Shown here: positions 17,539-64,000 of the stretch, piece by piece
Layout of the letters: each line of letters starts with the position of its first letter
Position numbering within the stretch: position 1 is the stretch's first letter
Source: an uncultured Planctomycetota bacterium
GTDB taxonomy: Bacteria > Planctomycetota > Planctomycetia > Isosphaerales > Isosphaeraceae
Direction: 5' to 3'
Length of the DNA stretch: 64,000 nucleotides
Assembly (NCBI GenBank): GCA_963845755.1
Contig: CAWJTV010000011.1
Location: forward strand, 128,001 to 192,000
The notes under the pieces: generated by a model
What the model was told of the DNA's origin: nothing
Databases searched by the model: none
What the model saw: only the letters and a program-made list of their open reading frames with translations
Position numbers and translations under genes: made by a program

Positions 17539-17563
17539 ATGATTTGACGACAGGAGGCTAATC

Positions 17564-20930: not shown

Positions 20931-20955
20931 AAACAACCAGGAGCGAAGCGAAGCT

Positions 20956-22176: not shown

Positions 22177-22210
22177 CCTCAAACAGTTCTGCAGCATAAG
22201 AATTTTACTT

Positions 22211-22381: not shown

Positions 22382-22389
22382 GGAATTCC

Positions 22390-23148: not shown

Positions 23149-23366
23149 GCCAGCGGCGATGCGTGGCGAGTGACGGATCCTGGTCACCTCCGCAGCACGT
23201 CTTCAAGCCACGATCGGCGCCGCGGTGGATTATCTCCCGGGCATCGTTGTCCGGCGAAAACTCGATCATGGGACATCGGTACCGGGAACCCGACAGTCCG
23301 AATTGATGACATCCCGAATCGCCTAACTATAATTCCCGCCGCCAAAGGCGGCCGAGGGCACCCTTC

Positions 23367-24068: not shown

Positions 24069-24149
24069 TTCCCAGTTCCCAGCGAATGCCGATGCACCAG
24101 GATTCGCTGGCCACGCGTAACCAGCAACCCCAAGAAGGGACCTTTTCCC

Positions 24150-24608: not shown

Positions 24609-24612
24609 GCCG

Positions 24613-25473: not shown

Positions 25474-25491
25474 TCCAGAGGATGCGACTCC

Positions 25492-26981: not shown

Positions 26982-27024
26982 GCCCCTCGACCGAAACCCA
27001 ACCCCGCACCTCGAGGGAATCTCC

Positions 27025-45814: not shown

Positions 45815-46327
45815 ATGAGCAGACCCGCGTTACTCTTTCCATTAACAGTGGGACTGCTTGCCAACTTGGCGTTCGTGACCTGCAGCCAGGCGGGTTCCAC
45901 CACGATAAGTGTGGACTCGGACTTTTCGTCCATTCCAGCGAGCGTGACCACCAGCACTAGCGTCGATGTCACATCCAGTGGTGTCCCCTCCTTAATTGGC
46001 CTGACAGTGGTGGTGCCAAAGGGTCCTTCCGGCAATCATCCGGATAACCTGACCGGCGTCTCGATTTCAAGCAACGTATCCACCGCTCACTTTTTGCTCG
46101 TCCGGGCTTACGGAACCTTCACGTTCGTCGTCCCGACGAACTGCCCATGGAGTCAGAGGGCTGCTAGTAGCGAATGGCAGACGAACAAAGAAGCCGCCGG
46201 CGAGCAATCCAGTCCTTTGCTCTACCGCGTCCCCGAGCCGACTTCGATGTCCCTGCTGGGCATCGGGATGGCGGGCTTGTTTGCCTTCCGCCGGTTCTTC
46301 AGGCGGAACACGAACGTCCAGTCGTGA
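45815..46327 (+). CDS. PEP-CTERM sorting domain protein
   Basis: GGAGGTG RBS, signal peptide, VPEPTSMSLLGIGMAGLFAFRRFFRR. Confidence 0.85.
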   Translation: MSRPALLFPLTVGLLANLAFVTCSQAGSTTISVDSDFSSIPASVTTSTSVDVTSSGVPSLIGLTVVVPKGPSGNHPDNLTGVSISSNVSTAHFLLVRAYGTFTFVVPTNCPWSQRAASSEWQTNKEAAGEQSSPLLYRVPEPTSMSLLGIGMAGLFAFRRFFRRNTNVQS

Positions 46328-46574
46328 TCGACCCGCCGATCGCAGTCGATCAACGAGTTCGAAATCGAGGGCATTCCGATAAGCGTGACAGAAACGCCTC
46401 GTGATTCGCCGCCCCTTGAGTGTCGCCCATTTAGCGACTGTCAGCGCGGGAACGGATCGGTCACGCCGCCGCAAGCTAACCCGTGAGGCTTGGACCAAAA
46501 TGGCAGGAGAGGTATCATAACCTCTCCTGCCATTTTATTTTCGAACCAAGGAAAAACGGGAAGAGAGAATCTCG

Positions 46575-48165
46575 GTGAACACCGAACCTCGGGAGGCGTA
46601 CGAAGCCCTCATCCGCCGGTCGCGGGAACTGGCGACTCTGTCCTCGTGCTCGTCGTTGCTGGGCTGGGACGAGCAGACGTATATGCCCCCTGGTGGTGCC
46701 ATCCACCGTGGTAGTCAGTTGGCACTGCTGGCGGGCTTGCACCATGAACGAGCGACCGATCCCCAGATCGCCGATTTACTAACCACCGTCGAGGGATCAA
46801 CCTTAGTCAGCGACCCCGACTCGGCCGAGGCCGTGAACATCCGCGAGATGAGGCGAGGCTACGACCGACGGGTCCGACTTCCCCGCTCGCTGATCGAAGA
46901 ATTGGCGCGGACGACCTCAATAGCTCAGTCTGAGTGGGTTACGGCGCGTGCTGCGAGCGATTTCGCGCGATTCCGGCCCTGGCTGGAAAAGATCATCCAC
47001 CTCAAGCGAGCCGAGTCAGCCTGCCTGGTGGGCCATGTGACGCGTGAGCGAACAGACGGGGCTGTGGGATCGGTCTACGATCCATTGCTTGACGAGTATG
47101 AGCCGGGGGCCACGAATGCCGACTTGGCCGTCCTGTTCGATGCCCTCCGTCTCGAACTAACGCCGCTGGTGGCGGTGATCGCCGAGGCTGCCGCCCGCAA
47201 ATCCAGAAATGGCAAAGGTCCGAGTCTTTCTGTAGGTTCTGACAGTAGGGCCATCCTTCGGCGAACTTATCCGCGCGACCGGCAGCGTATCTTCGGCGAG
47301 GCGGTTGCGTCAGCAGTAGGCTTCGACTTCCGGCGAGGCCGGCTGGACGTGACGGCTCACCCGTTCTGTACGGGGATCGGACCGGGCGACTGCCGTATCA
47401 CCACGCGGTTTGAGGAACATCACTTCGAAGACGCCTTTTTCGGCATACTCCACGAGGTGGGTCACGGGCTTTACGAACAAGGTTTGGAGGAAGCCCATTA
47501 TGGCACACCGATGGGCGAGGCCGTTTCGCTGGGAGTCCACGAATCCCAATCGCGCTTCTGGGAAAACCTCGTAGGCCGCAGCCGGTCGTTCTGGGAATAC
47601 TGGCTACCGATGGCGCGCACGGGTTTTCCAAGAGGCGCTGGCGGATGAGACGGTCGAATCGTTCCACGCCGCGATCAACGAGGTAGCGCCCTCTTTGATC
47701 CGCGTCCGGGCCGACGAGGCCACTTATAACTTGCACATCATCATTCGGTTTGAGCTGGAGCAGGACCTTCTCACAGGCGCGCTGACGGTTGACGAACTGC
47801 CCGGGGCCTGGAATCAGAAGTACCGGGAAATCCTGGGTGTGACCCCAGGCAGCGATGCGGAGGGTTGCCTCCAGGACATTCACTGGAGCGCCGGGCTCAT
47901 CGGCTATTTCCCGACCTATACACTCGGCAATATCTACGCGGCCCAGCTCTATGCCGCAGCCGATGCCGCGCTGGGCGGCCTGGACGATGCCCTGGCACAG
48001 GGTGATTCTCATGGCCTTCTCGGCTGGCTCCGCAAGAAGATTCACCGACAGGGCCAGCGATATCGTTCCGCGGAGCTGATCGAGCGCGTCACCGGCTCCC
48101 CGCCCGACCACCACGCGCTGATCGACGGCCTGCGCCGGAAGTATGGCGAACTCTACGGAATCTGA
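46575..48165 (+). CDS. Carboxypeptidase, family M32 (frameshift near 47620)
   Basis: LLGWDEQTYMPPGG, LDEYEPG, HPFCT, HEVGHGLYEQG (HExxH), HESQSRFWEN, IRVRADE, GCLQDIHW, GYFPTYTLG. Confidence 0.95.
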
Positions 48166-48246
48166 CGAACGCCTCGATCCCCCGGCTGGCCCAACCGTCG
48201 AACCGACTTGAGCGTTCATTGCATCCAAATCGAGTCATTACCTATT

Positions 48247-49467
48247 ATGATTCAATCCGACGCAGCCTTGCCCGAACTCGAATCCCGACCGAAGCCGGCT
48301 CCACCGCGCCTGGCTTCAATCGACGCCTACCGCGGGCTGGTTATGTTCCTGATGATGGCCGAGGTCCTCAGCTTTTGCGCGGTATCCAACAGGGTACCGG
48401 GAAGCAAACTGTGGGCGCTATTGTGCTATCATCAGTCGCATGTGCAATGGGTGGGCTGTTCGCTCCACGACCTGATTCAGCCTTCGTTCTCGTTCCTGGT
48501 TGGCGTGGCCTTGCCATTCTCGTTGGCCGGCCGGCTGTTGCGGGGGCAGTCGAAGGCCAAGATGACGGCGCATGCGCTCTGGCGGTCGCTGATCCTGGTC
48601 TTCCTGGGGGTTTTCCTGCGGTCGAGGCATCATCCGCAGACTTACTTCACTTTCGAGGATACGCTCAGCCAGATCGGGCTGGGATATACGTTCCTGTTCG
48701 TGCTGGCGTTGTTCTCGACGCGGGTGCAAGGAATCGCCCTGGGAGTAATCCTCGTCGGTTACTGGTCGGCGTTCGCGCTCTATTCAGCCCCCGGTCCCGA
48801 GTTCGATTACGCCGCCAACCGGGTTCCTGGGAGCTTCTCGGAGCACCCGAGCGGGTTCGCAGCGCACTGGGACATCAACAGCAACGCCGCTTGGGCTTTC
48901 GACACCTGGTTCCTGAACTGGTTCCCTCGTGAGAATCCGTTTGTTGGCAACAGTGGCGGTTACTCCACATTGAGCTTCATCCCGACGCTAGGGACCATGA
49001 TCCTGGGTCTCCTGGCCGGCGGGATCTTGCGGCGTCCGTGGAGTGGTGAGTCGAAGGTCCTCTGGCTGATCCTCGGCGGCGGGGTCAGCCTGGCGGCCGG
49101 CTGGGGCCTGGGTGAGCTCGGCTTTTGCCCGGTGGTCAAGCGAATCTGGACTCCGACTTGGGTGCTCTTCAGCGGCGGCTGGTGCTTCCTGTTCCTGGCG
49201 GGCTTCTACGCCATCCTCGACCTTCTGAACTTCCGGTCTTGGGCCTTTCCACTCCAGGTGATCGGCATGAACTCGATCGCGGCCTACTGCATGTCCGGCC
49301 TGTTCGAGGATTTCATCCGGGACAGCCTCAAGATTCATCTGGGAAAGGACGCGTTTAAGATCCTCGGATCACCTTACGAGCCCTTGCTCCACGGCGCGGC
49401 CATGTTGCTGGTGCTCTGGCTGATCCTGTTCTGGATGTATCGGCGTAAAATATTCCTGAGGGTTTGA
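48247..49467 (+). CDS. Membrane acyltransferase, heparan-alpha-glucosaminide N-acetyltransferase-like
   Basis: RLASIDAYRGLVMFLM, HVQWVGCSLHDLIQPSFSFLVG, PVVKRIWTPTW, IGMNSIAAY, MYRRKIFLRV. Confidence 0.85.
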   Translation: MIQSDAALPELESRPKPAPPRLASIDAYRGLVMFLMMAEVLSFCAVSNRVPGSKLWALLCYHQSHVQWVGCSLHDLIQPSFSFLVGVALPFSLAGRLLRGQSKAKMTAHALWRSLILVFLGVFLRSRHHPQTYFTFEDTLSQIGLGYTFLFVLALFSTRVQGIALGVILVGYWSAFALYSAPGPEFDYAANRVPGSFSEHPSGFAAHWDINSNAAWAFDTWFLNWFPRENPFVGNSGGYSTLSFIPTLGTMILGLLAGGILRRPWSGESKVLWLILGGGVSLAAGWGLGELGFCPVVKRIWTPTWVLFSGGWCFLFLAGFYAILDLLNFRSWAFPLQVIGMNSIAAYCMSGLFEDFIRDSLKIHLGKDAFKILGSPYEPLLHGAAMLLVLWLILFWMYRRKIFLRV

Positions 49468-49559
49468 CCATCGATCCAGCTTCGACACGAGAGGAGACCA
49501 TCATGTTCTGAAGGAATTGCGTCTTCTCCGCAGGCCAAGATCCGTCGAGCTTCGCCCTC

Positions 49560-52544
49560 ATGCGACACATTGCCATCCTCATGAATTGCTGGGTTCTCAC
49601 CTTCCTAATGGCGATGTCCCCCGTACATGGCCAACCCGCGTCGGCCGCGGGCCGGCCCGTGCGGCTGGAGGTGACGCGCGACACCTGGGTATCGGATGTC
49701 GGTCCGGAGAGCGACGGCAACAACGGCGGCGCATCGAGGCTCAAGTTCAAGAGCATCCAGGAAATGACCCTGCTTGACATCGATACCGCGCCGCTACGGG
49801 GGCGGACGATCCGATCGGCCGCGCTCCACGTGCGGCGATCGGACAACGAGCCGCTCCGGCGGGTGACGGTCGGCAGTATGGGAGCCGAGTGGTTCGAGGG
49901 AACGGGGAGCAGCTATTCGGTCCAACCCGGTGGGGCGACGTTTCGACGGCGACGGCACCCTGATTTACCCTGGTCGACCGGCGGGGGCGATCTCTGCCAC
50001 GTCATCCTGGGCAATGGCGGCACGACCTGGAGGATGGCGGACGCCTCCTCGCCCGATCGGGAGGGTTGGCAACGCGTGCTGGTCGATCCGCGGGTCGTGG
50101 CGGCCCGCCTGGCGGGACTCAGCCATGGTTTCCTCGTGTTCGACGACACGGGGTCGGAATGGGCCCGCAACGGAGAGACGTTCACACAACGGATTTTCCC
50201 CAACCGGTTCGTCTACAGCCGTCAACAGAATCGCTCGAGTGCTCCCTATTTCCACGTCGAACTCGGGCCGGACGATCATCAACCGCCTGCGGCCCCGAGC
50301 GGCCTGAGGGTCGCATCCCAGACGACCCAACTGCCCGCCGGCGAAGCGATGATCTCGTGGGTTACACCCCGCGACTCCGGCCCGGCTGGCACGCTCGGGT
50401 TTTTCGTGGCAATCGAGGGCCGGCCATTGCCACGCGAGCGGATTCCGATGGCCGGCGCGGTGGGCGAGCGAGTCGAGATGCTGCTTCGCGATGTCGAGTT
50501 AGCCCCCGGAGCGACGGTCACGCTGTCGGTGAGGGCTGTGGACGGGGCCGGAAATCTCGGGCCGGCGGCGACGGCCCGCTTCCAGGTCTCGAATCGCATC
50601 CCCGCGCCGCTTCCCCAGCCGAGACCGGCCACCGCGATGCGCCGTGGCGCGACGCCGGCAAGACCGCCCTCCTGGGAAGTCGCCTCAATCCCCACGCTCA
50701 TCGCCATCCTCGACGAGCTCGACAAAATCCAAGCCGACACGGGCGAGTTAGTCCCCTCCCAGCCCGATGGATACCTGACCGCCAATCATCTCTGGGACTC
50801 CGCCGCTCGACGGGTCACGCTCCATTCGGCGCGGAACGAGTTCGTCGCCTTCCAGGTCCTTCTCCGCTCTCCCGTCCCGGTTCTCTCTGCTTCGATCTGC
50901 GCCGAGTTGGTCTTTGACGGTCCAGTCGGCAAAGCGATCCAGGTCGGGATCGGCCGCTATCACCCGGTTCGTTCGCAGTTGGGCCCATTCCCCGACCCGA
51001 TCGTTCCACTGGATTTCCCCTTGCCCGACGACGCGGTTGCCGCGAAAAACTTGAGTTTGCACGCCGAGGTTTACGTCCCGCACCACGTACCCGCCGGGGA
51101 GTATGTCGGGACGCTGACATTGTTGAACGCACGGCGGGGCGGCGCAGTGCCCCTTGCGCCTGGCCGTGACGCTTCGGGTCTGGGATTTCACCTTGCCCGA
51201 TCATCTGAGTTTCCTGCCCGAGATGAACTGTTACGGCCTTCCGACGAACGAGCGCGACTACTACCGACTGGCACACCGGCACCGGACCGTATTAAATCGC
51301 GTCCCCTACAACCAGAGCGGACAGATGGCGGACGGCTGCGCACCGAGATGGGACGCGCGCCGGCTCGATCTCGAGTGGTCGGACTGGGATCGCCGATTTG
51401 GCCCGCTGCTGGACGGGTCGGCGTTCGCGGACCTGCCGCGCAAGGGAGTACCGGTCGAATGCTTCTACCTGCCTCTGCACGAAAACTGGCCGACTCCGAT
51501 GGAGGGCTATTATCAAGGCGACTACTGGGCCGATCAGGCCTTCCCCGAGTCGTATCGCCGGGCGTTCGTCGCAGCCTCGCGGCGGATCGCCGAACATGCC
51601 CGAGCCAAGGGATGGACCGAGACGCTCTTCCACGGTTTTCTCAACAACAAGAACAACTTCAAGGAGCGCGGCTGGTCGAGAGGATCGTCTCCCTGGCTCC
51701 TCGACGAGCCGGCTAACTTCCAGGACTACTGGGCGCTGCGATACTTCGCTCGGGCCTTCCACGAAGGGATCAACCAAGCCGTGGCGGAGGGCCCCGCAGA
51801 CAAGAGGCCCGTGCCGCGTCTGGTGTTCCGCGCCGACATCTCCCGGCCCCAGTGGCGGCGAGACAGTCTCGACGGCCTGATGGATTACCACGTGGTCGGC
51901 GGGGCGATGCGAACCTATCCCTGGCTGGTCTTCGACCGGAAGCGGGCCTACGGCGAGATCGTGGTCGAGTACGGATCGACCAATCCGGTCGAGGGCTCGA
52001 ACCTCCAGCCGGTGGGTTGGTGCCTGGACGCCTGGTCGCTCGGGACCGATGGCGTCCTCCCCTGGCAGACGGTGGGGGCGCCGGGTCGTGGGACCGGGCC
52101 GACGAGTTGGCGTTGTTCTATCCGGCCGCGGGCGGGTTGCGCGCCGAGCAGGGGCGGGAGACCCGCGCCCCACACGAGGGGGTGATTCCGTCGGTTCGCC
52201 TCAAGGCGTATCGCCGCGGGCAGCAGGACGTGGAGTATCTGACTCTCTGGGCGCGCCTGCACCACGAGCCGCGTTGGGCCGTCGGCCGGCAGGTGCGGGC
52301 GTCGCTGGGCCTGGTTGGCGTTCGCCGGGGCACCGGGATCGCCGGCGCCGAAGATGCCGGCCGGATCGACTATACCCGACTCCGCCCCCAGGACCTCTGG
52401 GCCTTGCGAGTCGCGATCGGCGAGGCGATCTCACAGGCCCGGCCCGCCCCGGCGAGCAAGCTCGTCGACTTCCGCACCCCGCGCCGCGACCCGGAGCACC
52501 TCCCGCAGGCATACGTTGCGGGCGATCCGGGTCGGGACCGATGA
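49560..52544 (+). CDS. Large secreted glycoside-hydrolase-like protein (GH123/DUF4091-like C-terminus; two frameshifts)
   Basis: Signal peptide; FN3-like segment; ARNEFVAFQV, LRVWDFTLP, WLLDEP, LFYP, PSVRLKAYRRGQQDVEYL. Confidence 0.7.
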
Positions 52545-52675: not shown

Positions 52676-52940
52676 ACTCTCGGCATCTGAGAGGACAGGT
52701 CTAGCTCGGTGCTCTGCACCAGGACGGCGTTGCGCCGCCCGAGCGTATGGCTGGTCATGCTGCACAACGAAGGCTGTTTCAGGCCCGCTGATCCCCCGGA
52801 CAGTGCCCGGTATGTCGGCGGTCCTGGGCCAACCCCGCCGATCGTGGTTCCGCCGACATACCGGGCACTGTCCGGGGGGCGGGCCAGAGAGCCTTCGATG
52901 TCCCAGGTCTTGTGGTAGATGTCTCTTGGATGCCGAGGGT
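52676..52940 (+). ncRNA. Retron-like msr-msd ncRNA, copy 1
   Basis: Terminal IR 52676-52703 with 52916-52940, followed by candidate branching G52704; two short hairpins (52708-52720, 52722-52740); long hairpin with a perfect 29-bp core (52793-52821 / 52850-52878). Confidence 0.75.
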
Positions 52941-53114
52941 GGGTTGCCGCGTGAATCAACGGGCAGCCCACCTGCCCTATCAAGCCTCGTGTTTCAATAA
53001 ATCAACAATCGGTGCCAGGGTCGTCCACCCGTCGTGTCTGAAATCGAAAAGAAGCCGGTAACCTCTTGCGGCGCCTCGGGATTAGTGCACAAAACATCCG
53101 TTCTTTGTCGTGAC

Positions 53115-53378
53115 GATCGAGCATTTGGGAGGACAGGTCTAGCTCGGTGTTCTGCACCAGGGCGGTGTTGCGCCGCCCGAGCGTATGGCTGGTCATGCTG
53201 CACAACGAAGGCTGTTTCAGGCCCGCTGATCCCCCGGAAAACTTCCGGCATGCGGGCGGGCCTGGGACAACCCTGCCGGTCGTGGTTCCGCCCGCATGCC
53301 GGAAGTTTTCCGGGGGGCGGGCCAGAGAGCCTTCGTTGTCCCAGGTCTTGTGGTAGATGAGACTCCGCGATGCTCAGG
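53115..53378 (+). ncRNA. Retron-like msr-msd ncRNA, copy 2
   Basis: Direct repeat of copy 1 at offset 438; candidate branching G53142; perfect 29-bp core 53231-53259 / 53288-53316 with 8 compensatory base-pair changes relative to copy 1. Confidence 0.75.
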
Positions 53379-53498
53379 GTGGGCTGTCTCGATAACCTCG
53401 AGCAGCCCCCCTACCTCTCAAAACATCACGTGGGTCAGAGTTTCCGGGCTGACGACCCATTCGTGTGGGGCTGGAAAGCCTGATCTATATTATCGGTT

Positions 53499-56400
53499 AT
53501 GAGGCACACTCTCGTGTTGACTGGACTCAATCTGGACGACGTCCAACGCGCCTGGGAGTCACGAGACCTCGAGCTGACCAGGGTCGTCCTCGAACTGGCC
53601 GGCCAGCCCGACAAGCCGCCCGCCACGCCTCCGCGCGAGGGCGCGCCGACGTTCGCCAAGTTCGTGGCTGAACTACATGACCAGGCCTTCGCGCAAAACC
53701 CCCGAGGAGCAGAAGCACTATCGAGTCGAGGGGATGCAGGCGCTCGAATCGCCGACGGCCGAAGGTCCTCTTCCCGACCGGCTCCGGATTCATGTGATCA
53801 TCGCGGCGCTCTGGGAAGACAACGGTCCCTTCGCCCGGTCGTGCCTGCTTGAGATCATCGCCCAGGTGCCGTTGCGCTATGGTCCGTGGCGAGCGCTGAA
53901 GCGGATCTTCAAGGAGGCCGAGGCTCGCGACGACACCGAGGTCTTTGGGCGCTGGCGGCTAGAGTGGATTCGTCGCAGATCGCGCAGGAGATCACCGGCC
54001 GCACACTCGACTATCTCCGCCGTCGTGCCTGGCGATACCTGCGCCGAACGGGCCAATCCCGTCCCGCCTGTTACGCCGACGTGGCCGCCGACGTGCTGGC
54101 TCGCTACGAGGATACCACGCCCTGGCATAACACCTGGGTCGCCAACCACATTTTCTACCATGAGACGGGCGACTATACCACTTCGAACTTCCATCTCAAG
54201 AAGGGGCGGTCGGACCTGAACGACCGCGCGTTCGCCGCGCTCTGGCAGCGGAGCCCGCGCCCGCTGTTCGGCCTGCTGGAGCGCGCGCCGGAGCGACCGG
54301 GTCCGGCAGTTCGCCGCCGACTGTTTGAAGGCCGACTTCCGCGCCTCGCTCCGCGAGGTCGAGCCCGCCTGGGTGGCCCGGCTGGTGAGTGTGGGCAGCG
54401 GGCCGGCGGACGAGTTCGTCGTCTGGGTGCTGAACAATGTCCCGAAGTTCGAGCAGGGCGCGTTTCGTTCGCTCGGTCTGCACCAGGCGGTGCTCCGGCT
54501 GTTCGACTCCCCCTCGGACACGGCCGGAGCCTATGCCGCCGAGTACGCCCGCACCCACGCCCGCGACCTGCCGGTGGATGAACTCGTCCGCCTGGTGGAC
54601 AATCGCCATGGCGCCGTCCGCAAGCTCGCCGTCGACCTGATCCAGGAGCGTGACCCGCGCAAGAAGATCGGACTGGATGCCTGGGGCCGGCTGCTCGAAT
54701 CGACCCGTGGCCAGTCGTTGGCAGCGACGGCTCTTCGCAAGCACTTCAGCGCCCGCGAGCTCACGCCCGACTGGTTCCGCGAACGGCTGTTCACGCCGAA
54801 GCAGGATCCGTTCGGGCACGTCCAGAACCTGCTGCTCGAGATTCATCCGGCCGAATCGCTGGGGCCGGGTTACTTCGTCGGACTTATCGAGATGGCCCAT
54901 AAGCAGGAGGACTGGACTCCGAACCGCGTCTTCCAATTCACCCAGTTCATCAAGGAGCAGCTCGCGCGGTTCGACCTCAACGCGCTCGATCGCGACGTCC
55001 TCCGCCGTCTCTTCCTGAAATCGTCCGCCATGACGATCATCCCCTGGATCGAGGAGGGCCGGCTCAAGCCCCAGGTGCTGGGCCTCGACTTCCTCAAGGC
55101 CGTGGCGTTTCACCCCGACTGGGAAACCGACCCCTGGATCGTCGAGCTGCGCCGGAACGGCCCCGCCTGGGCGCGCGAGCTGACGTTCGACGAGGGCATG
55201 TCGGAGAAGGTCCTTGGCTGGCTGGGCGACGTCCGCCGGTTTGCGCCTTCGGATATGGGGTTTGCTTGGTTGTTGAAGTTGGCGGCTCGGGGCGAGCCGC
55301 GATATCACAACTTCGCCGTCGAGACGATGATCAAGGGTTTCACACCCGCCGACTTCGCACCGAGCGTCCCCGAAGCCGCCGCGGCGCCTGCTGCTGGGCC
55401 GGCGACGGTCGACCTCGGCGGCGCCTCGTTCCTGTTCACGGGCAAGCTGGCGACGATGCAGCGCAAGGAGGCCGAGGACAAGGTCCGTCGCGCGGGCGGC
55501 TCGGCGGCCTCGAGTGTGACCGCCAAGCTCCATTACCTCGTCATCGGCGATGAGGGCTCGCCGCTGTATGGTCACGGCAAGAAGGGCGCGAAGCAGCTCA
55601 AGGGCGAGGAGCTCAATGCCGCGGGCGCGAACATCCGGATCATCTCGGAGACCGCATTCCTGAAGATGCTCGCCGGTCATGCGCCACGGGCCTCTCAGGG
55701 CGACGCGCTCGCCGGCGCCGAGCGGCTCTGGGAGATGGCCATCGTCCCCGGCGCGGCCGACGCCCCGCTCGGCCGGTTCGCCATGAAGTTCATTCTTCGC
55801 CATCACCCCGACATCGCTCTGGCTCAGACCGATCGACCTGTCGATCCCGGTGCCGAGATCCCCGCTGAGTTCCTCGGCTTCGATCGAGTGAGACCCTTGT
55901 TCTCGGAGACCCGCAAACCGCTCCGCGACCTGGCGCTGGAGCTGGCTCGGTGGGAGTTCGCACGCTGGTCTCCATCGGCCGACGAGCTGGTCCTTCTGGC
56001 CGAGAATCCGCACGCGGATGTTCGCCGGTTCGTGGCCCAGTCGCTCCTGGCCGACGACGCGCCCGAGCATCGCCGATACCGGATCGACCTCGAGTCGCTC
56101 ACGTCTGCGGCGGTCTTCCGTTTCTGCGAGTCGGCTGACGAGTTCGACGCGCGCCCTGGGCATGCAGCTCATCGACCGATCGGCCCGGTTCCGGCAGCCC
56201 GAGGAACTCTTCCGCCTGACCGAGAGCCCCGATCGGAGGGTCCGCGGATTCGTGATCCGGACGCTCTGGTCGCTCTATCGCGACCGGGGAATCACCGAGG
56301 GCTGGAGGCCGTACGTCCCGCCCGCGACGACCGTGGGCGCGGCGGCGAAGAAGGCCGCGCAAGTTCAGGCCGACAGCCGGGGTCCTGGTCCTCCAGCCCG

Positions 56401-56743
56401 GCCCGAGCAGTTGCCCGCGAGCCTGCGCGACCTATGGGGCTTTCTGCGTCGCACCCTGTTCGAGATCCCCCCACCGCGCCCCGAGAAGCGCGACCCGGAA
56501 GCCGGGGAATCGGGCGAACGGCTCAAGCCGTTCCCGGCGCGGCGGGCGAAACTGGCGCTGGTCGAAACCCTGCGCGACCTGGCCCTCGAGGATGCCGACT
56601 TTGCTCGCGGTGCGCTGCCGATCCTCGAGGAGTTCATGGTCTCCCGGGGCGTGACGGAGAGAGCCGCGTGCCTGGTCGCCGTCACCCGGATTCGACATAC
56701 CCACGCCGTGCTCCGCCTCGCAAGCGAAGGAGGTGCCTCATGA
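53499..56743 (+). CDS. Helical-repeat protein with BRCT domain (several frameshifts)
   Basis: Joined ORFs 53499, 53677, 53886, 54325 and 56018; BRCT motif LGGASFLFTGKLATMQRKEAEDKVRRAGG..SSVTAKLHYLVIG..IISETAFLKML. Confidence 0.8.
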
Positions 56744-59700
56744 CCGCGCCGGCCGATAAGCACCTCACCTACCGTGGCGAGATCAAGGGAGCCGTCGGCG
56801 TCGGCGGCACGCTGGCGTTTGTCACCGTCCATCCCGAGGGTCAACCCACGGCCCTCTACCGGCTCGATGCGGACAAGCTGACGCTCGACACTGACCCGTT
56901 GCCGAGAGGCGGCACGACGATCACGGCCGTCGGCGAGAGCCTCTTCCTGGCCGGCGGTGATGGTCAGGTCTACGTGGGCTCGATCGCTTCGGGAGAGCCG
57001 AAACCGCTGGGCGCCGCCCTCGATATCCCGGCGACGGCCCTGGCTCCACTGGCCGATAGCCGATTGGCCGCCCTCGTTGGATCGCGCGTCGTCATCCTGG
57101 CCACCAAGAACGGCAAGTCGGTCCAGACGCTCGACCTGCCCGAGCCGGGGACATCGTTGGCGGCCGACGCGACAGGGCGCTGGCTGGCGGTCGGGACGGC
57201 GAAGGGGACTGTCCTGGTCTTCGACGCCGAGGACAAGCCTGAGTTTTTGCTGAGTGCTTCGGAGCGGCTGCACGAGGGTGCGGTCAGTGCGATCTTGTTC
57301 GAGCCGGACGAGCTGCGGTTTCTCTCGGCGGGGGCCGACCAGAAGCTCCTGTTGACCCACGCCCGCGGCAAGCTCGAGCCCGAGGACAAGGGGCGAGGCA
57401 ACAACCACACCGACGTCATCAAGGCGATGATCTGGGGGCCCGGCGATCGCCTCTACACGGGAGCCTTCGACGCCGCGATCAAGTCGTGGCCGCGGGTGGG
57501 CGCGATCAAGCCGGCGACGACCAAGGACGGGGTCGGCCGCGTCGTCGCCCTGGCGATGGTCCAGGTCCACGAGCGGCCCCGGCTTGTTGGGGCGTGCGAA
57601 GACCAGACGATCCGGGTTTTTCCGGTCGACGCGGCGGGCAAGATCGGCGAGCTGGCACACTGGGTTCGTGACGCTTACGCCCGGGCCAAGCACGAGCTGT
57701 CGCAGGACGATCCCACCCGTCGCGAGGAAGCCCTGAAAGCCCTCGCGGGTTACGCCGACACGCGCGCCCTGGGCCTGATCGCCGAGCAGGCCGACGCCGA
57801 CGCCGACCACGCGCTTCGCCTTCATGCGGCCGACCTCCTCGGCGCGTCCGGTCATGCCCGGGCCGCAACCCTGCTGGAGAAGCTACTCGGACATCGGGAC
57901 GAGGCGGTCCGCGTCTCGGCGTTCCGGGGACTACGCCGGCATCTCGGCGAGACCGACCTCCGCCCGATCGACCTGGCGCTGAAGGCGGATAAGCCCGACG
58001 TCGGCCGGCTGGCCGTGCAGGCTCTGGAAACTCTCGCGACGAAGGACGACCAGGCCCTGGCGCGGCTGACCGACGCCCTCAACGCCCGGGTGCCCGAGGT
58101 CCGCCTGGCGGCCGTGGTGAGCCTCGAATCGGCCGCGGACCCGCGATCGCCCGAGTCGAACCTGGCGGCGCTGACCTCGAAGCATGCCGATGTCCGCCGC
58201 TCCGCACTGCTGCGACTCTACCGGCGCGGGCTGCTCGGCGAGCCGGCCGTCCAGTCGGCGCTGCGGCGCCGGGCCGAGGACGCCGATCCCGATGTCCGCC
58301 GCACCGCGTTCTTGCTCGCAATCCACACCCGCGAGCGGCTGCTTCAGGCCCTTCGGTCGCGCGATCCCGACTTGCAGCGACAGCTCGTCGAGTTGGAGGA
58401 CACGGGTCATGGCGAGCCAGTAGGGCCAGATGTGCCGACCGATCGAGGTGCAGACGGCGCTCTGGTGCTCACAGAGCACCCTACGGGGTCGCAGAAAAAG
58501 AAGGCCAAGCCCGCCAAGACGACCTCCACCACGGCGGAGCCATCTCTCGAAGACTTCGACTTCGAGCCCTTGCTCCAGGCGACGGCCAGCCGGTGCTGGA
58601 CACCTGCCTCCGGGGGGCGCGAGGGCTGGCGATGCTGGGCGATCCGCGGGCGTTCGGCCTTCTACTCCAACTCAGCCGGGAAGAGGACAAGACGGCCCGC
58701 GCCGAGGTCTGCCGGGCGATGGCTGCGCTCGACGATCCGCGCGCGGCCGAGCGGCTCCGCTCGATGCTTCACGACCCGGAGCCCGAGGTCCGCGACGCCG
58801 CCTTCACCGCCATGGCCCGTCTCCACCAAGCCAGTCCCTTGGCAGCCGCCGAGTCGGGCCTGAACGCCTCGCATGAAGATGTACGCCGGCGCGGTCTCCA
58901 ACTCCTGGTCGAGCAGATCCGCAAGGCCAAGACCGGAGGTGCCGCCGGGCCGGCCCTGTCGCTGCTCTCGCGCGCCCTCAACGACAGCTTCCCGGCGGTC
59001 CGGTCCGAGGCGTTCAAGTCGGCGCTGGGCCTCCACGCGGGCGGCGCCGGCGCGGGCACTCTCCGGTTCGCCTTGCAGAGCGTTCATGCCGACGTTCGCC
59101 GGGAGGTCCTCACAGAGGTGATGGCCCAGGTGGGCGAGCCCTGGGGCTGGGACCTCCTGCTGGAGTTCTTCAACGATCCCGACCCGGCGCTGCGGGGCGA
59201 AACGTTCGAGTTTGCCCTCAAGAAGACCAGAGGGCTCGAGTTCCTCGAGGCGGCGCTCGCCTCACGATACCCCGACCTTCGCGAGCGGTCGGTCGCCGAG
59301 CTGGTCAAGAAGCACACCGCCGCGGCACAGGCGCTGCTGGTCCGGGCACTCGACGATGAGGACCCCGAGGTTCGACTTGCCGCGATGAAATCGCTGGTCG
59401 ATGCCGACGCCCTGCCTGCGCTGATGGAGGCCCTCGGAAACACGCATCCCGACGTGTGCCTCAGCGCGGCCAAGGCCTTCGCCCGTCATGGCGACTCCCG
59501 GCGGCTCGAGCCGCTCCTCGTCCTGGCAACGGCCCCGGAACCCTTGGAGCAAGAGCGTCGTGACGACTGGCTCAAGCAGGCCGAGTCGGCCCTGGACGGC
59601 TTGGGTGAGCTGGGCGATCCGGCCGCGTTGGCGCACGTGATCCCGCTCCTGGACAGTCCGCGGACGGCGATCCGCCTCCAGGCAGCTCGGGCCCTGGTCT

Positions 59701-62700
59701 GGGTGTCTCGGCCCGGAACCACCGACGCGCTGCGACAGGCGATCCAGCACGCCGACGTCGCCGTGAAGTACCACGCCGCCAAGGGCCTCGCCTTTACCGG
59801 CGATGGCTCGGTGGTCCCGCTCGTGTTTTCCGAGGCGGCCGGCAAGATCGTGAGCGTCGGCGAGCAGATCGCCGCCGCGCTGGCCGTCGGGGCCGCGGGC
59901 GAGGACAGGCTCGCCGTCTCTCTGGACGACACGAATGAGGACGTCCGCGACCGCGCCCTGGTCCTCTTGATGATGCTCGAATGGAAGGACCCGGACGGCA
60001 CGGCCGCGCGTTGCCTCGCCTGCCTGGCGAGCCGGACGCCCCGGATGCGCCTCACCGCCGCCCGAGCACTCGAAGCCCTGGTCGAGCCCGGCATCTTCGA
60101 GCCCTTCATTATCAGTCTGGTCAACGAACGGGGCGACAAGCCCGAATGGAAGATCGCGGCGCCGACCGTAAATGCCTTCGCCGAAATGCTCGTCCATGGC
60201 GACGCGCAGCTCCGGGCGCGCACGGCTCGGCTCTTTGCCCGGCTCAATGAGAAGGAACAGGCCGCCTTCGACCAGGCCTGGGCGGTACACGAGCAACGGT
60301 TTGCCCGCGAGCTCGCCGAGCTAATCCGTCAGGCCAAGGCACGGAATCCGGTCGCGCCGCGATACACGCGCGATCAACTCCGTGAGCTGGCCTTCGGGGC
60401 GTATGTCGGCTTAGTCCGCGAGCAGGGCAGCTCGAAAGGCAAGGGTCAATCCGGCACCGATCCGGCCATCGTGCGCGTCCGGCAGTCGGCGCTGGACCGT
60501 CTGCTCGCGCTGGCGGGCGCCGATGCACATCTCGCCGCCGCGTCGCGGCCGGTTTTCGTGCAGGCGCTCGGCGATCCGAACCAGGCTGTCCGGTTCCAGG
60601 CGTTCGAGCAGGTCCAGAAGATCGGGCTGGGAACAACGGAGCTGGCCGCCGAGGCGCTGGCCACCGGGCACGTCAACCTGGGCGTCAAGGGTCTGGAGTT
60701 GCTCGCCGGCGACCGTTCCGAGGCCGAAGGCGCGGCCGTGCTCGAACGGGCGATGCTGGCACGTACCGACGACCTGGCCATCGAGTCCGCCAAGCTGTTG
60801 ATCGCGCGTCGAGGGGCCGTGGCCGTGGCCAGCCGTGCTGTGGAGGCCACTCACCCACAACTCCGCAACCAGGCCGTCAACTGGCTTGCCGCCGAATACG
60901 ACAAGGACCCTGGCGCCGGGAAAGCGCTACGGTCGGCCCTGTCCTCGCGATATCAGGCCGTCCGTGAAGCGGCGGCGTTCGCGCTAGCCATCAAGAAGGA
61001 CCCCGCCGCTTTCGAGCCCCTGGTTGGGATCCTGGCCACCGCGTCCGTGGGGAGGCAACAACAACGTGTCATCCAGACGATGGAGACCCAGGGCGACCCG
61101 CGCGCCGGAGGGGTCTTCCTCGACCGGATCGAGAACGACCCGGCCGGGACGGCGATGGTCAACGAGCTGCTCAAGGGAGTCGGCCGGTTCCGGCGCCCCG
61201 AGACTGCCGATCGGTTGCTGAGTCACTGGGAGAAAGACACGAAACGACACGATGCCGTCTTCAACGCCCTGGTGACGATCAGCGGCTACGATCAACGGAT
61301 CGAGGACACCGAGGACGAGCAGCCCGAATCCTTCTGGCTAGAGAAGCAATTCCCTCGTCATGACGATGTGCTCGCCCGGTTGATGGACCGGGTCTCGGCG
61401 CCGGCCGAAGCCAAGTTCCTGGCCCGGCTGATTCCCGGGGCCCGCTGGGCGCGCGGCAAGCCGGTCGATCCCGTCCTGTCGGGTTTGATCAACCACGCCA
61501 ATGACGAGGTCCGGCAGAAAGCCGTCGAGGCCATCGGCTGGCGGCTTCGCAAGCGCGGGAGCGAGGCCGAGCCTCTGAAGAAGGCCCTCGCGCATCGCGA
61601 CACGATTACCCAGTTCCTCGCCGCCGAGGCGCTGGCCAAGGCCGGCCGCGGCGATGGGATGAACGTGTTGCTGGCGAGCATCGACTTCGCCACCGACCTG
61701 GATATTCGCCGCCGTGCCGTGCTCGCCCTTGGCGAGTTGGCCGACGAGCGGGCGCTGGACGTGCTTCTCAAGCTTGCCGGCGAGGATGGCCACGCGCTCC
61801 AGGAGCAGGCCCTCGAGGCCATCGGCCATCTGGGTCGCTCTCAGCGGGCCGACGAAGTGTTCAAGGTCCTGGAGCGGCACGCGAAGGGAACCGCCGGCAT
61901 AGCATGGCGGGCCCTCAACGGCCTGCGCTGGCTCAACACGCGGGCGGCGTGGGAGGTCATCCGGGCACGGACGTCCGACCCATCGTGTCCGTTCTGGGAA
62001 GAATCCGTCAGTCTGCTGGGCTACAACAACGATCCGGCTACCCGCGACTTGCTGCTCCGTTTGCTCGCCAAGGAGGCCGATGTGGTCGAGGCGGCAATGG
62101 CGGCCGCTCGCCGTCTCTGGGGCCAGGACTCGCTCGAGCCGGATTACGCGGTAGTCCAGAACGAAGACCTGGATCATCTGGATGATCACGAGAAGATACT
62201 GGCCCGGCTCCGCGACCGGGGCGAGCCGCGGCGCATCTTCGAGATCCTCCCGAAGTGTCCCGCCCCGGTGCGCGCGACGCTCGCCACCGGACTGTTGAAT
62301 CGGGCCGAGCCGCCCGTGGCCGAGGCGCTAGCCGCGCTCGACAGCCCGGACCCGACCACCGCCGGGACGGCAGCCCACATCCTGGGCCGAGCCGGCGCCG
62401 GACGGCCGAGGCCGGGCCGGCGGTGATCAATGCGCTGGTGAAGTGGCGAAAGCTCTGGGAGGAACAACGGCCGTCGTTCGACCGGAGCGTCGCCGGCCTG
62501 ATCCGCCGGAAGAACGAACAGGCCGACGGGCTCACCGCGTGCGTCCGGGATCTGGTCTGGGCGGCGGGCCGGCTGGGCGTTGGCACCGAGTCCCTGGCGG
62601 AGGCCGCCACCGCGCGGCCGGACGACGACGAGTATCAGCCGATCCGCCTGGCCGCCGTCCTGGCCCTCGGCTCGGCCACGATGTCCCCGGGCGCGATTGC

Positions 62701-63172
62701 GGCCCTGGAGTCGGCCGCGTTCACGGGCGCCCCCGAGATCCGCGCCGCCGCCGCGCAGGCCATCGCCCGGCGCGACCCCGAGCGGGCCGCCAGGCTCGCT
62801 GACCAGTTCCTGTCCGATCGCGTCGGCTTCCACCGGCTCACGCTCGACGGCGCGAGGGACCTCGAGGAGACGCTCCGAACTGCCGCGCGCCAGGTCCATT
62901 ATCAAGGCATCGTCCTCCCGGGCCTGATCGATCGCGGCGACGTCTCGGCGCTGGCCGTCGTGGCCGAGGATCGCGCGCTGCCCGAGGCCGCGCGGCTGGG
63001 GGCCGTCGAGGGGCTGGCCGCGATGGCCCGGGAGCCGGCCGAAGACGTACTTCGCAGGGTCGGGATGAGCACCGTCGAAGACGAGGAATTGCGCAAAGCC
63101 GCCTGGCGCGGGCTCCGCCGCTCGAAGCGGGCGCGGAAGACCCGGGCGACGAAGGTCGAGGTGAAGTCATGA
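56740..63172 (+). CDS. Very large WD40 beta-propeller plus HEAT/ARM-repeat protein (two frameshifts)
   Basis: GGAGG RBS and ATGA overlap; WD40 motifs (WLAVGTAKGTVLVFD, HEGAVSAILF, FLSAGADQKL, YTGAFDAAIKSW); then many HEAT repeats (DPEPEVRDAA, DEDPEVRLAA). Confidence 0.85.
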
Positions 63173-64000
63173 GCCCTGCCGACGAGACTCGCGAAGAGAC
63201 TCAGGAGCCGGCCGCAGCCGAGATCGCGACGACCGAGGTCCGCATGGCCTATGCCGGGATGAGCACGCTGGTCGCCACCGAGGAGACCGCGGGCTGACCC
63301 TGGCGAGCAATCTCCGCCGCGACCCAGTGCGGTTCGAGGCCACCATCAAGGAGCCGCTTCGGTTCCGCGAGGCGATGGCCGCGCTCTACGCGGTTGTGGC
63401 CAGCGACTTCCGCTATGTGCCCAAGGACCGGACCGCCTATGTGGCCTACAGCCGGATGCGCCGGGAGTCGTCGAGCCTGAATGCTTGGCAGGCCCAGCGC
63501 GCCTATTTCTCCTGGCTGCTGCGCAACGACCCATTGGCGTTTGTAATCCTCGACCCCGTGATCACGGTTCATCCGGATCAGGTCCTTTTCGAGGTCTTCA
63601 GCAAGGATGAGGGAGCCTATGCGAAGTTGGGCGTGGATCGCGACGCCTTCGACCACGCCGAGACGCCGGCCTTCGGCACGACGAACGTGGACTTCAGCCA
63701 GTCGCTCTATCAGGGCTTGCAGCAGATGCGGAGCTACCGCGAGACCCGGCTGAGCATCGGCCAGGAGGGCGTGAAGTTCGCCACGACTACCGCGGGCGAG
63801 GTCCTGGAGAAGCGGATCCGCGTGCCCGACTCATGGCTGCGCGGCTTCCTCCAGGTCCAGTCGTCGGCCGCGCTGCCGCGCGACCGGTTCGACCTGGCGC
63901 CGGTGGACTTGTACAACGCCCTGCGCCACCTGCGGCTGAACGCCGATCGCAAGGGCCAGCGGCGGGGTTTGCGGATCGAGCTGGTCCCGGGCGAGCCGCC
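63169..64000 (+). CDS. SWIM zinc-finger-family protein, N-terminal part (frameshift near 63295; runs off window)
   Basis: ATGA overlap; NLRRDPVRF..PLRFREAMAALY..LDPVITVHPDQVLFEVFSKDE..GTTNVDFS..VPDSWLRGFLQVQS, recognised as the N-terminus of that family. The SWIM motif itself is not in the window. Confidence 0.65.

Follow-up and report, generated by a model that had tools for sequence, protein, structure and literature searches.

The region 52681-64000 on the forward (+) strand of the window (the whole stretch of DNA analyzed, 64,000 nucleotides long) very probably represents the 5' four-fifths of a type XIII retron of a planctomycete kind, in which two tandem msr-msd units are followed by three accessory genes and, as the expected fourth gene, a reverse transcriptase (RT), and in which the frame changes of the present copy are most likely assembly errors. 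The identity of the system, its ncRNAs and the gene order are the parts of this explanation that are shown or nearly shown. Judged by its sequence, the operon is real but of a known kind, as its accessory genes have already been catalogued for type XIII retrons. All three genes match PADLOC retron type XIII models over nearly their whole length through consecutive fragments (the PADLOC names are annotation and form the basis of the gene-family identities), which supports the type XIII-like identity proposed in the original prediction. Both ATGA overlaps that had been described are present (ATG 56740/TGA 56741-56743 and ATG 63169/TGA 63170-63172), the ATG of gene 1 at 53499 lies 124 nt past the end of ncRNA copy 2 (outer a2 arm to near 53375; ~120 nt had been given), and BRCT, WD40, and HEAT are each detectable in the encoded proteins. 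The proposed sizes (~1080, ~2140, and >270 aa) agree with those of intact relatives, but all three reading frames are broken here, and neither the SWIM finger nor the RT falls inside the window.

The gene order was compared across 78 related loci, with Planctomycetota lineages in 71/78 of the record titles. In these mostly planctomycetotal relatives, 1-3 tandem ncRNA copies are followed by gene 1, gene 2, SWIM, and RT_XIII, in that order. Among loci reaching far enough upstream, gene 1 was present in 55/57 and the ncRNA in 54/57, while among those reaching far enough downstream the SWIM gene and the RT were each present in 54/56, with the order SWIM then RT in 53/56; no related locus had the ncRNA at any other place. 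The association with both RT and ncRNA thus held when homologous operons lacking either were looked for. Exceptions include a relative without a downstream RT (L043), an orphan frameshifted gene 2 (L025), and a shortened gene 2 that abuts the RT, with gene 1, SWIM, and ncRNA all missing (L064). In Singulisphaera acidiphila (L009), a 436-aa RT (RT_XIII, 542 bits) follows genes encoding 1108, 2131, and 626 aa, every junction is a 4-nt overlap, and the ncRNA-RT distance is 11.7 kb. An alignment of 47 RTs shows conserved NAxxH, YADD, and VTG motifs. No RT was found within the 64-kb window; extrapolated from the gene order in relatives, one would be present in this genome ~1 kb past 64000, with a start near 65050 and ~11.7 kb from the ncRNA. 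The proposal that the ncRNAs sit more than 10 kb from the RT therefore stands as to distance, but with the RT downstream of the SWIM gene and outside the window.

Gene 1 (53499..56743, +) encodes an alpha-solenoid protein with an internal BRCT domain and matches the PADLOC model HEAT-ARM_XIII PDLC02921 in five fragments (model positions 3-58, 53-152, 138-254, 254-724, and 723-866 of 869; E 2e-176 for the largest), while its relative in L009 is intact (1108 aa, 1254 bits). The BRCT domain (55405..55671, +; residues 396-484 of the ORF starting at 54220) is of the RFC1/LigA type, as the ligase-type assignment had it: NCBIfam matched the C-terminal BRCT parts of its PolIII epsilon (E 2.1e-15) and LigA (E 5.5e-9) models, and the gene 1 family profile matched the RFC1 BRCT (2k6g, 1.1e-6) and LigA in PDB (range E 1e-6 to 1e-3), with the Pfam BRCT score (18.9 bits) under the cut-off of 21.3. 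BRCT domains of this class bind DNA, that of RFC1 binding 5'-phosphorylated duplex ends; the gene 1 BRCT differs in lying midway along a retron's solenoid protein of 1080 aa, and its DNA binding is putative. Gene 2 (56740..63172, +) encodes a very large protein that combines a WD40 propeller at the N-terminus with an extended HEAT solenoid, and the gene's fragments cover positions 3-559 (E 6.9e-207), 561-1752 (1361 bits), and 1754-1971 of the 1972 in HEAT-ARM_XIII PDLC02919. Its relatives measure 2100-2170 aa, the best ones being 77-79% identical, and it is intact in L009 (2131 aa, 2327 bits). HEAT_2 was detected by Pfam (E 4.7e-62), whereas the matches to beta-propeller and WD40 Pfam families (57019..57624, +; residues 934-1135 of the ORF starting at 54220) were all below cut-off (best E 2.6e-9), although the WD40 region recurs at residues 106-300 of the intact L009 protein. 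No enzymatic domains were found by Pfam in the gene 1 and gene 2 proteins, including the intact ones of L009.

Gene 3 (63169..64000, +) comprises the N-terminal ~45% of a PADLOC SWIM_XIII protein cut by the window end (E 2.3e-97, positions 17-251 of 509). The proposed SWIM gene is thus borne out by its model match, but the SWIM zinc finger itself lies past the window end, and Pfam gave no match on the fragment within the window. The fragment aligns to residues 39-278 of the intact L009 protein (626 aa, 655 bits to SWIM_XIII) with 78% identity. The family has a CxCx12CxH finger, a WGR-like tail in 10/42 members (sub-cut-off in Pfam) and 13 invariant acidic residues. Its N-terminal half is predicted to adopt a sliding-clamp fold, according to a single AF2 model (pLDDT 77.8, pTM 0.73). 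The best 50 PDB matches listed for this model were all PCNA, beta-clamp or 9-1-1 proteins (Foldseek best E 7.5e-7, probability 1.0, TM 0.55-0.69 on target, ~320-340 aligned columns, 8-14% identity), and a viral structure library agreed, with clamp/processivity-factor matches among the matches listed, several viral rows being unnamed. The likeness to sliding clamps (PCNA, DnaN beta clamp, 9-1-1) and viral monomeric processivity factors concerns the predicted fold of residues ~20-355; in contrast to those proteins, the domain has no sequence-level match (the SWIM-family profile gave none against PDB), so that the resemblance is one of fold in one model and not of family membership, and the clamp-like part, rich in invariant acidic residues, is fused to a winged helix (the middle region, per Mestre et al. 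2020), the SWIM finger and the WGR-like tail.

These acidic residues admit another reading, in which the SWIM protein is a transposase-derived DEDE nuclease and the sole effector, and the clamp resemblance is a model artefact. Mestre et al. (2020) give the motif Dx7[D]x4Ex30-32Dx37E and compare it with IS256 and Mutator transposases; the spacing matches here (invariant D130, D138, E143, D176, and E215), the gene 3 fragment holds the invariant acidic DEDE residues, and as many as 13 invariant acidic positions would be unusual for a non-catalytic clamp. However, the named top matches listed in two independent structure libraries are sliding clamps or related DNA-polymerase processivity factors, an RNase-H-like transposase or nuclease is absent among the matches listed, and the model confidence for residues 131-350 is mostly 75-92, so that we regard the nuclease reading as possible but rather unlikely. 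The two views are compatible, as a clamp-like fold could carry a metal site.

The repeats upstream of gene 1 carry every computationally testable hallmark of a retron msr-msd. Copy 1 (52681..52935, +, from outer a1 to outer a2; identified by direct repeat, fold, and covariation) has a candidate priming G at 52704 in TAGC and a long msd hairpin at ~52760-52906, and copy 2 (53119..53375, +; direct repeat and fold) has its candidate priming G at 53142 and the long hairpin at ~53198-53344. Each copy is directly followed by a stable hairpin, GC-rich and without a U run after copy 1 (52936..52972, +; -29.8 kcal/mol, z -3.6; for copy 2, 53376..53412, +; -26.2 kcal/mol, z -5.3), and a comparable 3' hairpin (z below -2) follows 43/60 related ncRNAs. 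The alignment of 60 ncRNA sequences has 61 pairs, 47 of them with compensatory changes; 94.7% of the cells are paired (71.9% when shuffled, 31-45% when the structure is slid), and double-change cells number 846 vs 248. The outer a1/a2 arms vary in sequence but retain complementarity within each copy, with cognate duplexes averaging -19.1 vs -9.0 kcal/mol for non-cognate ones (p 3e-30). In 58/60 sequences a1 carries, at its inner end, a TAGC whose G is unpaired, which matches the priming-G context of Simon 2019 (PMC6868368). G.U pairs make up 8.9% of the paired cells in the msr helices and 1.3% in the long hairpin, a scarcity that would follow from a need for the hairpin to pair as DNA too. The two copies form a direct repeat of 239 nt with 89% identity and show compensatory changes between them. 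They differ mainly in the mid-stem (~25 bp), where identity drops to 67-68% with pairing kept, against 95-100% in the msr and at the base of the hairpin.

A working mechanism, less likely than not to hold in all its steps, can tentatively be put together from these parts. Transcription of the operon would start ahead of the ncRNAs, the msr-msd structures would be separated from the mRNA, and the RT would act on RNA encoded 11.7 kb from its own gene, priming from the conserved G in TAGC and turning the long hairpin into ~150-165 nt of msDNA. Both the SWIM protein (predicted clamp-fold half with invariant acidic residues, winged helix as assigned by Mestre et al., SWIM finger, and WGR-like tail) and the gene 1 BRCT could then bind the msDNA duplex and its branched end, while the two solenoid proteins would scaffold the particle and present large sensing surfaces; by analogy with retrons whose action has been studied, a phage that interferes with the msDNA or the particle would set free a toxic activity, probably one directed at DNA. 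The assembly of the accessory proteins on RT-msDNA is inferred in this scheme, and phage defense by type XIII retrons is assumed: a literature search found no paper on the function or structure of any type XIII retron and no experiment showing defense by one.

The same particle could also belong to a domesticated, vertically inherited retron that takes part in cellular DNA metabolism (replication, repair, chromosome handling) and not in phage defense, an explanation to which we give a limited, minority weight. Mestre et al. (2020) report that type XIII correlates moderately with host 16S (0.78) and raise domestication, myxococcal retrons appear vertically inherited according to Simon 2019 (PMC6868368), and the RT tree groups largely by planctomycete family. 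RFC1/LigA-type BRCT, WGR-like and predicted clamp folds are also domains of replication and repair proteins, and a recognizable toxin domain was not found (Pfam, including the L009 proteins). On the other hand, each retron type studied so far is defensive according to the abstracts listed in the literature search, and the genomic flanks are common only to close congeners, therefore the locus is not at a fixed site. Some non-planctomycete record titles also bear the system, though binning errors are possible there. Finally, in some pairs the msd mid-stem changes more quickly than four-fold degenerate sites do (identity 0.14-0.24 vs 0.46-0.54), a pattern more suggestive of an arms race than of housekeeping.

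The frame changes bear on whether the locus works at all. Open frames run at 53484-53852 (f0), 53578-54219 (f1), 53853-54581 (f0), 54220-58863 (f1), 55892-56743 (f2), 57993-62426 (f0), 62186-63172 (f2), and 63165-63998 (f0), and the third-position GC signal switches frame at the same places, with a strong codon signal in every fragment. Four changes fall in gene 1 (near 53686-53706, 53949-53989, 54290, and 56140), where the ORF from ATG 53499 has only 117 aa, two in gene 2 (near 58594-58626 and 62396-62420, in agreement with tblastn HSP boundaries), and one in gene 3 between 63169 and 63279, where the frame of ATG 63169 meets 7 stops before the window end. With seven changes (4 + 2 + 1) in 10.5 kb no gene of the three is intact, which could mean that a type XIII retron is decaying here as a pseudogene remnant, its frame changes real and nothing functional made; a homopolymer of six in only one junction zone (the one clear case, a G6 run at 58612) and the reduced or partial loci among relatives (L064, L025, L043) would fit this. 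We nevertheless hold decay to be improbable: the housekeeping genes for RsmH (1158-1988 plus 1817-2185) and an M32 peptidase (46521-47648 plus 47575-48165) are split likewise in the window, and because of this the changes are probably assembly errors. Moreover, the fragments hold the coding GC3 pattern and 77-79% identity to their best relatives without further stops, the SWIM fragment retains 20/20 checked invariant residues, the mid-stem arms of both ncRNA copies are perfect 24-nt inverted repeats, and the locus of a related long-read MAG (L001) has similar breaks at other positions. Assembly errors are thus the most likely source of the frame changes in this copy.

That the repeats are some other structured element (a leader/attenuator, a repetitive palindromic element or a pair of terminators) and that the operon works without msDNA is highly improbable. 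In favor of this reading, Rfam gave no family at gathering score (only sub-threshold miRNA-hairpin look-alikes), a promoter-like site was not found and the repeats are not adjacent to the RT as in the textbook retron cassette (Mestre et al. 2020). Against it stand the a1/a2 arms that vary yet stay cognate, the conserved unpaired G, msr-type short hairpins with a long hairpin of ~147 nt (near the 162 nt of the Mx162 msd), G.U depletion specific to that hairpin, and strict co-occurrence with the RT_XIII operon.

The closest known systems are the type XIII retrons of Mestre et al. (2020), which belong to RT clade 10 and include the validated msDNA producers Mx162, Mx65, Sa163, and Ne144; among them, the closest is the variant whose SWIM gene (cluster 114_1) is preceded by two HEAT/ARM genes (clusters 259_1 and 1688_1). 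The planctomycete operon shares with them the gene families by PADLOC models, the DEDE motif and CxCx12CxH finger of the SWIM family, an N-terminal RT extension (RVT_1 starts at residue 157 of 436 in L009), and an Mx162-like size of the long msd hairpin with the priming G in an AGC context. It differs in its host, which is a planctomycete and not a myxobacterium, in far larger accessory proteins (1080 + 2140 aa) with BRCT and WD40, in a WGR-like module at the SWIM C-terminus (in Table 1 of Mestre et al. it is on the HEAT/ARM protein of cluster 216_1), and, against the text compared, in 1-3 tandem ncRNA copies that head the operon 11.7 kb from the RT. Canonical retrons with studied mechanisms (such as Eco1/Ec86, Eco7/Ec78, Eco2, and type IX Kva2) likewise combine an ncRNA of msr-msd architecture, an RT and accessory protein(s), with one transcript bearing ncRNA and genes (Simon 2019, PMC6868368), but their ncRNA is contiguous with the RT and not separated from it by 11.7 kb and three genes, and their effectors, as published, have recognizable enzymatic domains (nuclease, ATPase, NDT, others), whereas none of the accessory proteins here has a recognized catalytic domain in Pfam. 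Within this known family, two leads may be new: tandem msd copies that differ mainly in a mid-stem cassette, and the sliding-clamp fold predicted for the N-terminal half of the SWIM protein.

The coding frame in the window was read from third-position GC, since at a G+C content of 60–70% long spurious open frames are plentiful. Between 53.5 and 64 kb this signal was strong and lay on the + strand throughout, with the frame switching repeatedly across stop-to-stop open frames at 53484–53852 (+, f0), 53578–54219 (+, f1), 53853–54581 (+, f0), 54220–58863 (+, f1), 55892–56743 (+, f2), 57993–62426 (+, f0), 62186–63172 (+, f2) and 63165–63998 (+, f0), the last of which is still open where the window ends. 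The original prediction had drawn three translationally coupled genes here (gene 1, 53499..56743; gene 2, 56740..63172; gene 3, 63169..64000); all three exist with the domains named for them and both ATGA overlaps are present in the sequence, but none of the genes has an intact frame. The ORF from the ATG at 53499 is only 117 aa long, seven stops follow in frame after the ATG at 63169, and the order in which the fragments fall on the PADLOC models gives four frame changes in gene 1, two in gene 2 and one in gene 3. Indels occur across the whole window and beyond the retron operon, as the genes for RsmH/MraW (1158–1988 and 1817–2185, profile positions 27–163 and 168–300) and for an M32 carboxypeptidase (46521–47648 and 47575–48165, profile positions 5–319 and 316–489) are also split, each into two overlapping frames. 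The operon fragments retain their codon signal and share 77–79% identity with their best relatives, the SWIM fragment keeps all invariant residues checked (20/20), and a related long-read MAG (locus L001) is broken too, at other positions. One junction carries a G6 run and the remaining ones have no clear homopolymer. We regard the frame breaks as very probably assembly errors rather than decay.

In order along the gene, the fragments of gene 1 covered positions 3–58, 53–152, 138–254, 254–724 and 723–866 of the 869 positions of the PADLOC-DB model HEAT-ARM_XIII PDLC02921, and those of gene 2 covered 3–559, 561–1752 and 1754–1971 of the 1972 positions of HEAT-ARM_XIII PDLC02919 (two large pieces: E 6.9e−207; 1361 bits). 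Two HEAT/ARM genes, each matching its model over the whole length, therefore stand directly upstream of the SWIM gene, and both giant proteins are already known, near full-length models being present in PADLOC. The BRCT, WD40 and HEAT domains that had been proposed were detectable: Pfam searches returned HEAT_2 repeats (E 4.7e−62) and, below the family cut-offs, a WD40/beta-propeller region shortly past the start of gene 2, and BRCT (PF00533) in gene 1 scored below the Pfam cut-off of 21.3 bits (18.9 bits in the window; 20.2 bits in Singulisphaera acidiphila DSM 18658, locus L009), backed by NCBIfam matches to LigA (E 5e−9) and, in its C-terminal part, to a PolIII epsilon model (E 2e−15) as well as by a profile of 44 gene 1 family members that matched BRCT structures from RFC1 and LigA. 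The domain searches of the window genes and of the S. acidiphila operon found no recognisable catalytic domain in genes 1 and 2. At E up to 1e−30, a search of 1.84 billion proteins places 275 representative clusters in the gene 1 family; homology of gene 1 to the SWIM protein was considered and rejected (hhalign probability 0.1%). Most gene 2 homologues (P0001–P0120) carry the automatic JGI annotation “ParB family chromosome partitioning protein”, a name that looks spurious because Pfam detects only WD40 and HEAT repeats in those proteins. The G+C content is 0.67–0.70 in the retron operon (54000–64000) and 0.55–0.66 before it (44000–52000), and the higher value could reflect the amino-acid bias of the repeats or a foreign origin.

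Related loci were collected with the first 618 aa of gene 2 aligned with 19 full-length relatives, one genome per species being scanned; 167 stretches matched and 78 loci were confirmed, 71 of them with record titles naming Planctomycetota lineages. In the finished genome of S. acidiphila the operon is intact, encoding proteins of 1108, 2131, 626 and 436 aa with a 4-nt overlap at every junction, and these score, in gene order, 1254, 2327, 655 (SWIM_XIII) and 542 bits (RT_XIII) against PADLOC. Among the 56 loci reaching at least 9.7 kb past the gene 2 start, the SWIM gene and the RT were each found in 54, in the order SWIM-then-RT in 53; gene 1 was present in 55 of the 57 loci reaching at least 3.9 kb upstream. 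The order conserved in relatives is ncRNA, gene 1, gene 2, SWIM, RT. The RT was scored as RT_XIII in S. acidiphila and in L064 (522 bits), and the relatives keep the retron-specific motifs NAxxH (region X), YADD and VTG (region Y), with N207, A208, H211, Y315–D318, T368 and G369 conserved across 47 RTs. Three loci deviate: L025 (9866–16423) has an orphan, frameshifted gene 2 whose neighbours lack a PADLOC match, L043 (16370–19926) has the full accessory operon with no RT downstream, and in L064 (8286–13258) a truncated, half-length gene 2 is followed directly by RT_XIII, without gene 1, SWIM gene or ncRNA. Homologous operons devoid of RT or ncRNA would have spoken against the original prediction; the RT accompanies the operon in 54/56 relatives and the ncRNA in 54/57.

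No RT was found within the window: no long open frame contained YxDD, the sole Y/F-x-DD word lying in a frame with stops, the S. acidiphila RT gave no tblastn match, and a profile of 47 RTs gave none at E up to 10 against 900 six-frame window fragments. A location of the RT upstream inside the window was rejected, as motif scan, tblastn and profile search were all empty. The position in relatives puts the expected RT start of this genome near 65050. The N-terminal part of SWIM_XIII is in the window, but the SWIM finger and the predicted RT lie outside it.

The last frame of the window matched SWIM_XIII at positions 17–251 of 509 (E 2.3e−97, PADLOC) and contains the DEDE residues. The SWIM finger was seen in relatives (C511, C513, C526 and H528 in S. 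acidiphila; Pfam SWIM 22.1 bits, cut-off 19.6). With all three genes matching PADLOC type XIII models, the proposed type XIII-like retron is supported. Mx162 was the first msDNA ever found. Mestre et al. (2020) group it with Mx65, Sa163 and Ne144 in type XIII (RT clade 10). The defining protein of this type (cluster 114_1) combines a central DEDE motif, whose acidic residues were read as transposase-like, with a winged helix and a C-terminal SWIM finger, CxCx12CxH; a protein of this kind is what the SWIM_XIII match and the DEDE residues indicate here. In type XIII, one or two HEAT/ARM-repeat genes stand before the SWIM gene, and the present operon is the variant with two; the locus is no new kind of system. 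The literature searched contained no mechanism, structure or demonstrated function for type XIII accessory proteins, and no experiment on any type XIII retron, phage protection included.

The putative ncRNA copies (52681..52935 and 53119..53375, +) were confirmed as a direct repeat: 239 nt recur 438 nt further on with 89% identity. Folded on the + strand, both copies show an outer stem formed by a1 and a2, then short hairpins and a long hairpin of ~147 nt, and lastly the a2 arm. The 257-nt element was analysed by nhmmer, RNAalifold and pair counting. A profile built from the two copies detected it in 59/78 loci, in all of them on the + strand directly upstream of gene 1 and nowhere else in the loci; where the upstream sequence suffices (57 loci), it is present in 54, as one copy (43), two copies (9) or three copies (2). 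In the consensus of 60 sequences, compensatory changes occur at 47 of the 61 pairs; paired cells amounted to 94.7% vs. 71.9% in shuffles and 31–45% in slid structures, and double-change cells to 846 vs. 248. The outer a1/a2 arms were too variable for alignment, and their cognate pairing reached −19.1 kcal/mol vs. −9.0 kcal/mol for non-cognate arms. In 58/60 sequences the inner end of a1 carries an unpaired G within TAGC, in agreement with the priming-G context given by Simon et al. 2019 (PMC6868368).

The G.U share of paired cells, which are not independent of each other, was 8.9% in the msr-side helices (columns 38–83 and 276–282 of the A5 alignment of 60 ncRNAs) vs. 1.3% in the long hairpin (columns 115–263). 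A hairpin that also has to pair in its DNA copy would be expected to show such depletion, which is the one indirect sign of branched msDNA production here and a simple computational signature of a hairpin selected to pair as both DNA and RNA. Measured against the msr-msd motif as defined by Simon et al. 2019 (PMC6868368) and Mestre et al. 2020, the element has the a1/a2 inverted repeats, the short msr hairpins, the long msd hairpin and the priming G in (T)AGC, that is, every computationally testable hallmark of a retron ncRNA except adjacency to the RT. Three genes lie between the two in relatives, and the predicted distance of more than 10 kb was borne out, being 11.7 kb in S. acidiphila, where a 4-nt overlap joins the SWIM gene to the RT gene; the relatives have no second ncRNA copy near the RT. 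Rfam contained no family reaching its gathering score, and relaxed E-values produced only miRNA-hairpin look-alikes, taken as generic hairpin matches as all were far below their cut-offs. No tRNA or tmRNA was detected in the window, and a promoter scan found no sigma-70-like site upstream of the ncRNAs, a result that is uninformative for Planctomycetota. Directly 3' of a2, each copy is followed by a stable, GC-rich hairpin that lacks a U run (52936–52972, z −3.6; 53376–53412, z −5.3), and 43/60 related ncRNAs have a comparable hairpin; termination, or processing at the boundary of ncRNA and mRNA, is its possible role.

Tandem copies from the same genome share 95–100% identity in the msr, the hairpin base and the conserved apical tip, and only 20–67% in a mid-stem of ~25 bp that differs on both arms with pairing retained. 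This pattern was seen in the window, where the mid-stem arms of both copies are perfect 24-nt inverted repeats, and in L001, L003, L007, L008, L015, L021, L029, L033 and L050, with L051, whose tandem copies are identical, as the exception. Across species, mid-stem divergence exceeds that of the four-fold degenerate sites of the adjacent genes in some cases (0.14–0.24 vs. 0.46–0.54 identity) and falls below it in others (0.67–0.88 vs. 0.57–0.75), which looks like episodic replacement. From these alignments the mid-stem looks like a replaceable specificity cassette, and because tandem msd variants differ in one stem cassette only, the comparison suggests that the msd stem sequence is a specificity determinant. 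A spacer-like mid-stem was unsupported, as the 24-nt arms had no match elsewhere in the window and the ncRNA pair had none in 50,697 phage records.

The S. acidiphila SWIM protein (L009 16384–18261, with window positions 63279–63998 as the homologous N-terminal part) was modelled with AlphaFold2 (42 aligned sequences, pLDDT 77.8, pTM 0.73) and compared with a PDB library, and among the matches listed the top ones were all sliding clamps (PCNA, beta clamp, 9-1-1), the best with E 7.5e−7 and a TM of 0.55–0.69 on PCNA over ~320–340 columns; a viral structure library gave the same outcome among the matches listed. Sliding clamps have two or three clamp domains, and assembly into a ring around DNA is their functional hallmark. 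In this one model the clamp-like fold spans residues ~20–355 and carries the invariant acidic residues of the DEDE motif. A search of the family profile against PDB gave no sequence-level match, and no title or abstract in the literature searched tied retrons to a sliding clamp. The model raises the possibility that the SWIM protein binds msDNA in the manner of a DNA clamp and is not a relic of a transposase. Its acidic cluster would be the best effector candidate of the operon, because genes 1 and 2 have no recognisable catalytic domain. A WGR-like tail was detected in planctomycete SWIM proteins at a sub-threshold level (10/42 at E up to 0.01; residues 576–623 at the C-terminus in S. acidiphila, L009 18084–18261). 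Since this module sits on the SWIM protein here, whereas Table 1 of Mestre et al. (2020) places it on the HEAT/ARM protein in other type XIII retrons, the domain may have moved between type XIII subunits.

Building on the observed families of the three genes, the conserved gene order and the retron-type ncRNA, one long transcript would start upstream of the ncRNAs, the structured units would be separated from the mRNA, and the RT would act on an RNA whose gene is distant from that of the RT. The resulting msDNA would measure ~150–165 nt, its duplex and branched end being bound by the clamp-like/SWIM/WGR protein and the gene 1 BRCT, with the two solenoid proteins serving as scaffold and for sensing. 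By analogy with studied retrons, a phage disturbing this particle might release a DNA-directed toxic activity. A domesticated, non-defence role would agree with the 16S correlation of type XIII noted by Mestre et al. (2020) and with an RT tree that mostly follows planctomycete families; however, the genomic flanks of the locus are common to congeners only, and we find such a role conceivable though unlikely. None of the 78 loci is flanked by counterparts of the genes upstream in the window. A prophage-like structural block (~14676–30428) lies ~22 kb upstream of the retron, with a portal (14676–16778), a scaffold protein (18625–19452), an SU10-type major capsid protein (19497–20789), a head-closure protein (21298–22176) and tail-fibre or virion-protein-like ORFs (25474–26799, 27609–30428).

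Within type XIII, the planctomycete loci could form a distinct sub-type in which a replication-junction mimic, an msDNA repertoire and replisome-type readers on a scaffold act as a decoy or sensor set; taken as a whole, we judge this reading improbable. In its parts, one to three tandem msr-msd genes head a 13-kb operon, and near-identical copies with a rapidly replaced mid-stem may yield a small repertoire of msDNA hairpins, as would follow from copies that are alike except for the cassette. The readers may be the predicted PCNA-like clamp-fold domain of the SWIM protein, the RFC1/LigA-type BRCT and the WGR-like module, mounted on >3000 residues of WD40/HEAT scaffold, and with the msDNA repertoire the system may decoy or sense different DNA-processing factors of phages. 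Tandem mid-stem variation, the 3' hairpin, the clamp fold and the WGR-like tail may be previously undescribed, as leads from single models or sub-threshold matches. For specialists, the interest lies in the distal, tandem, cassette-variable msd and in the clamp-fold lead, in a retron type whose mechanism is absent from the literature searched. An intact copy is available in a cultured organism with a finished genome, S. acidiphila DSM 18658. The RT would have to locate an RNA whose gene is 11.7 kb from the RT gene, which matters for retron ncRNA surveys confined to a few hundred bases upstream of the RT (PMC13712802).
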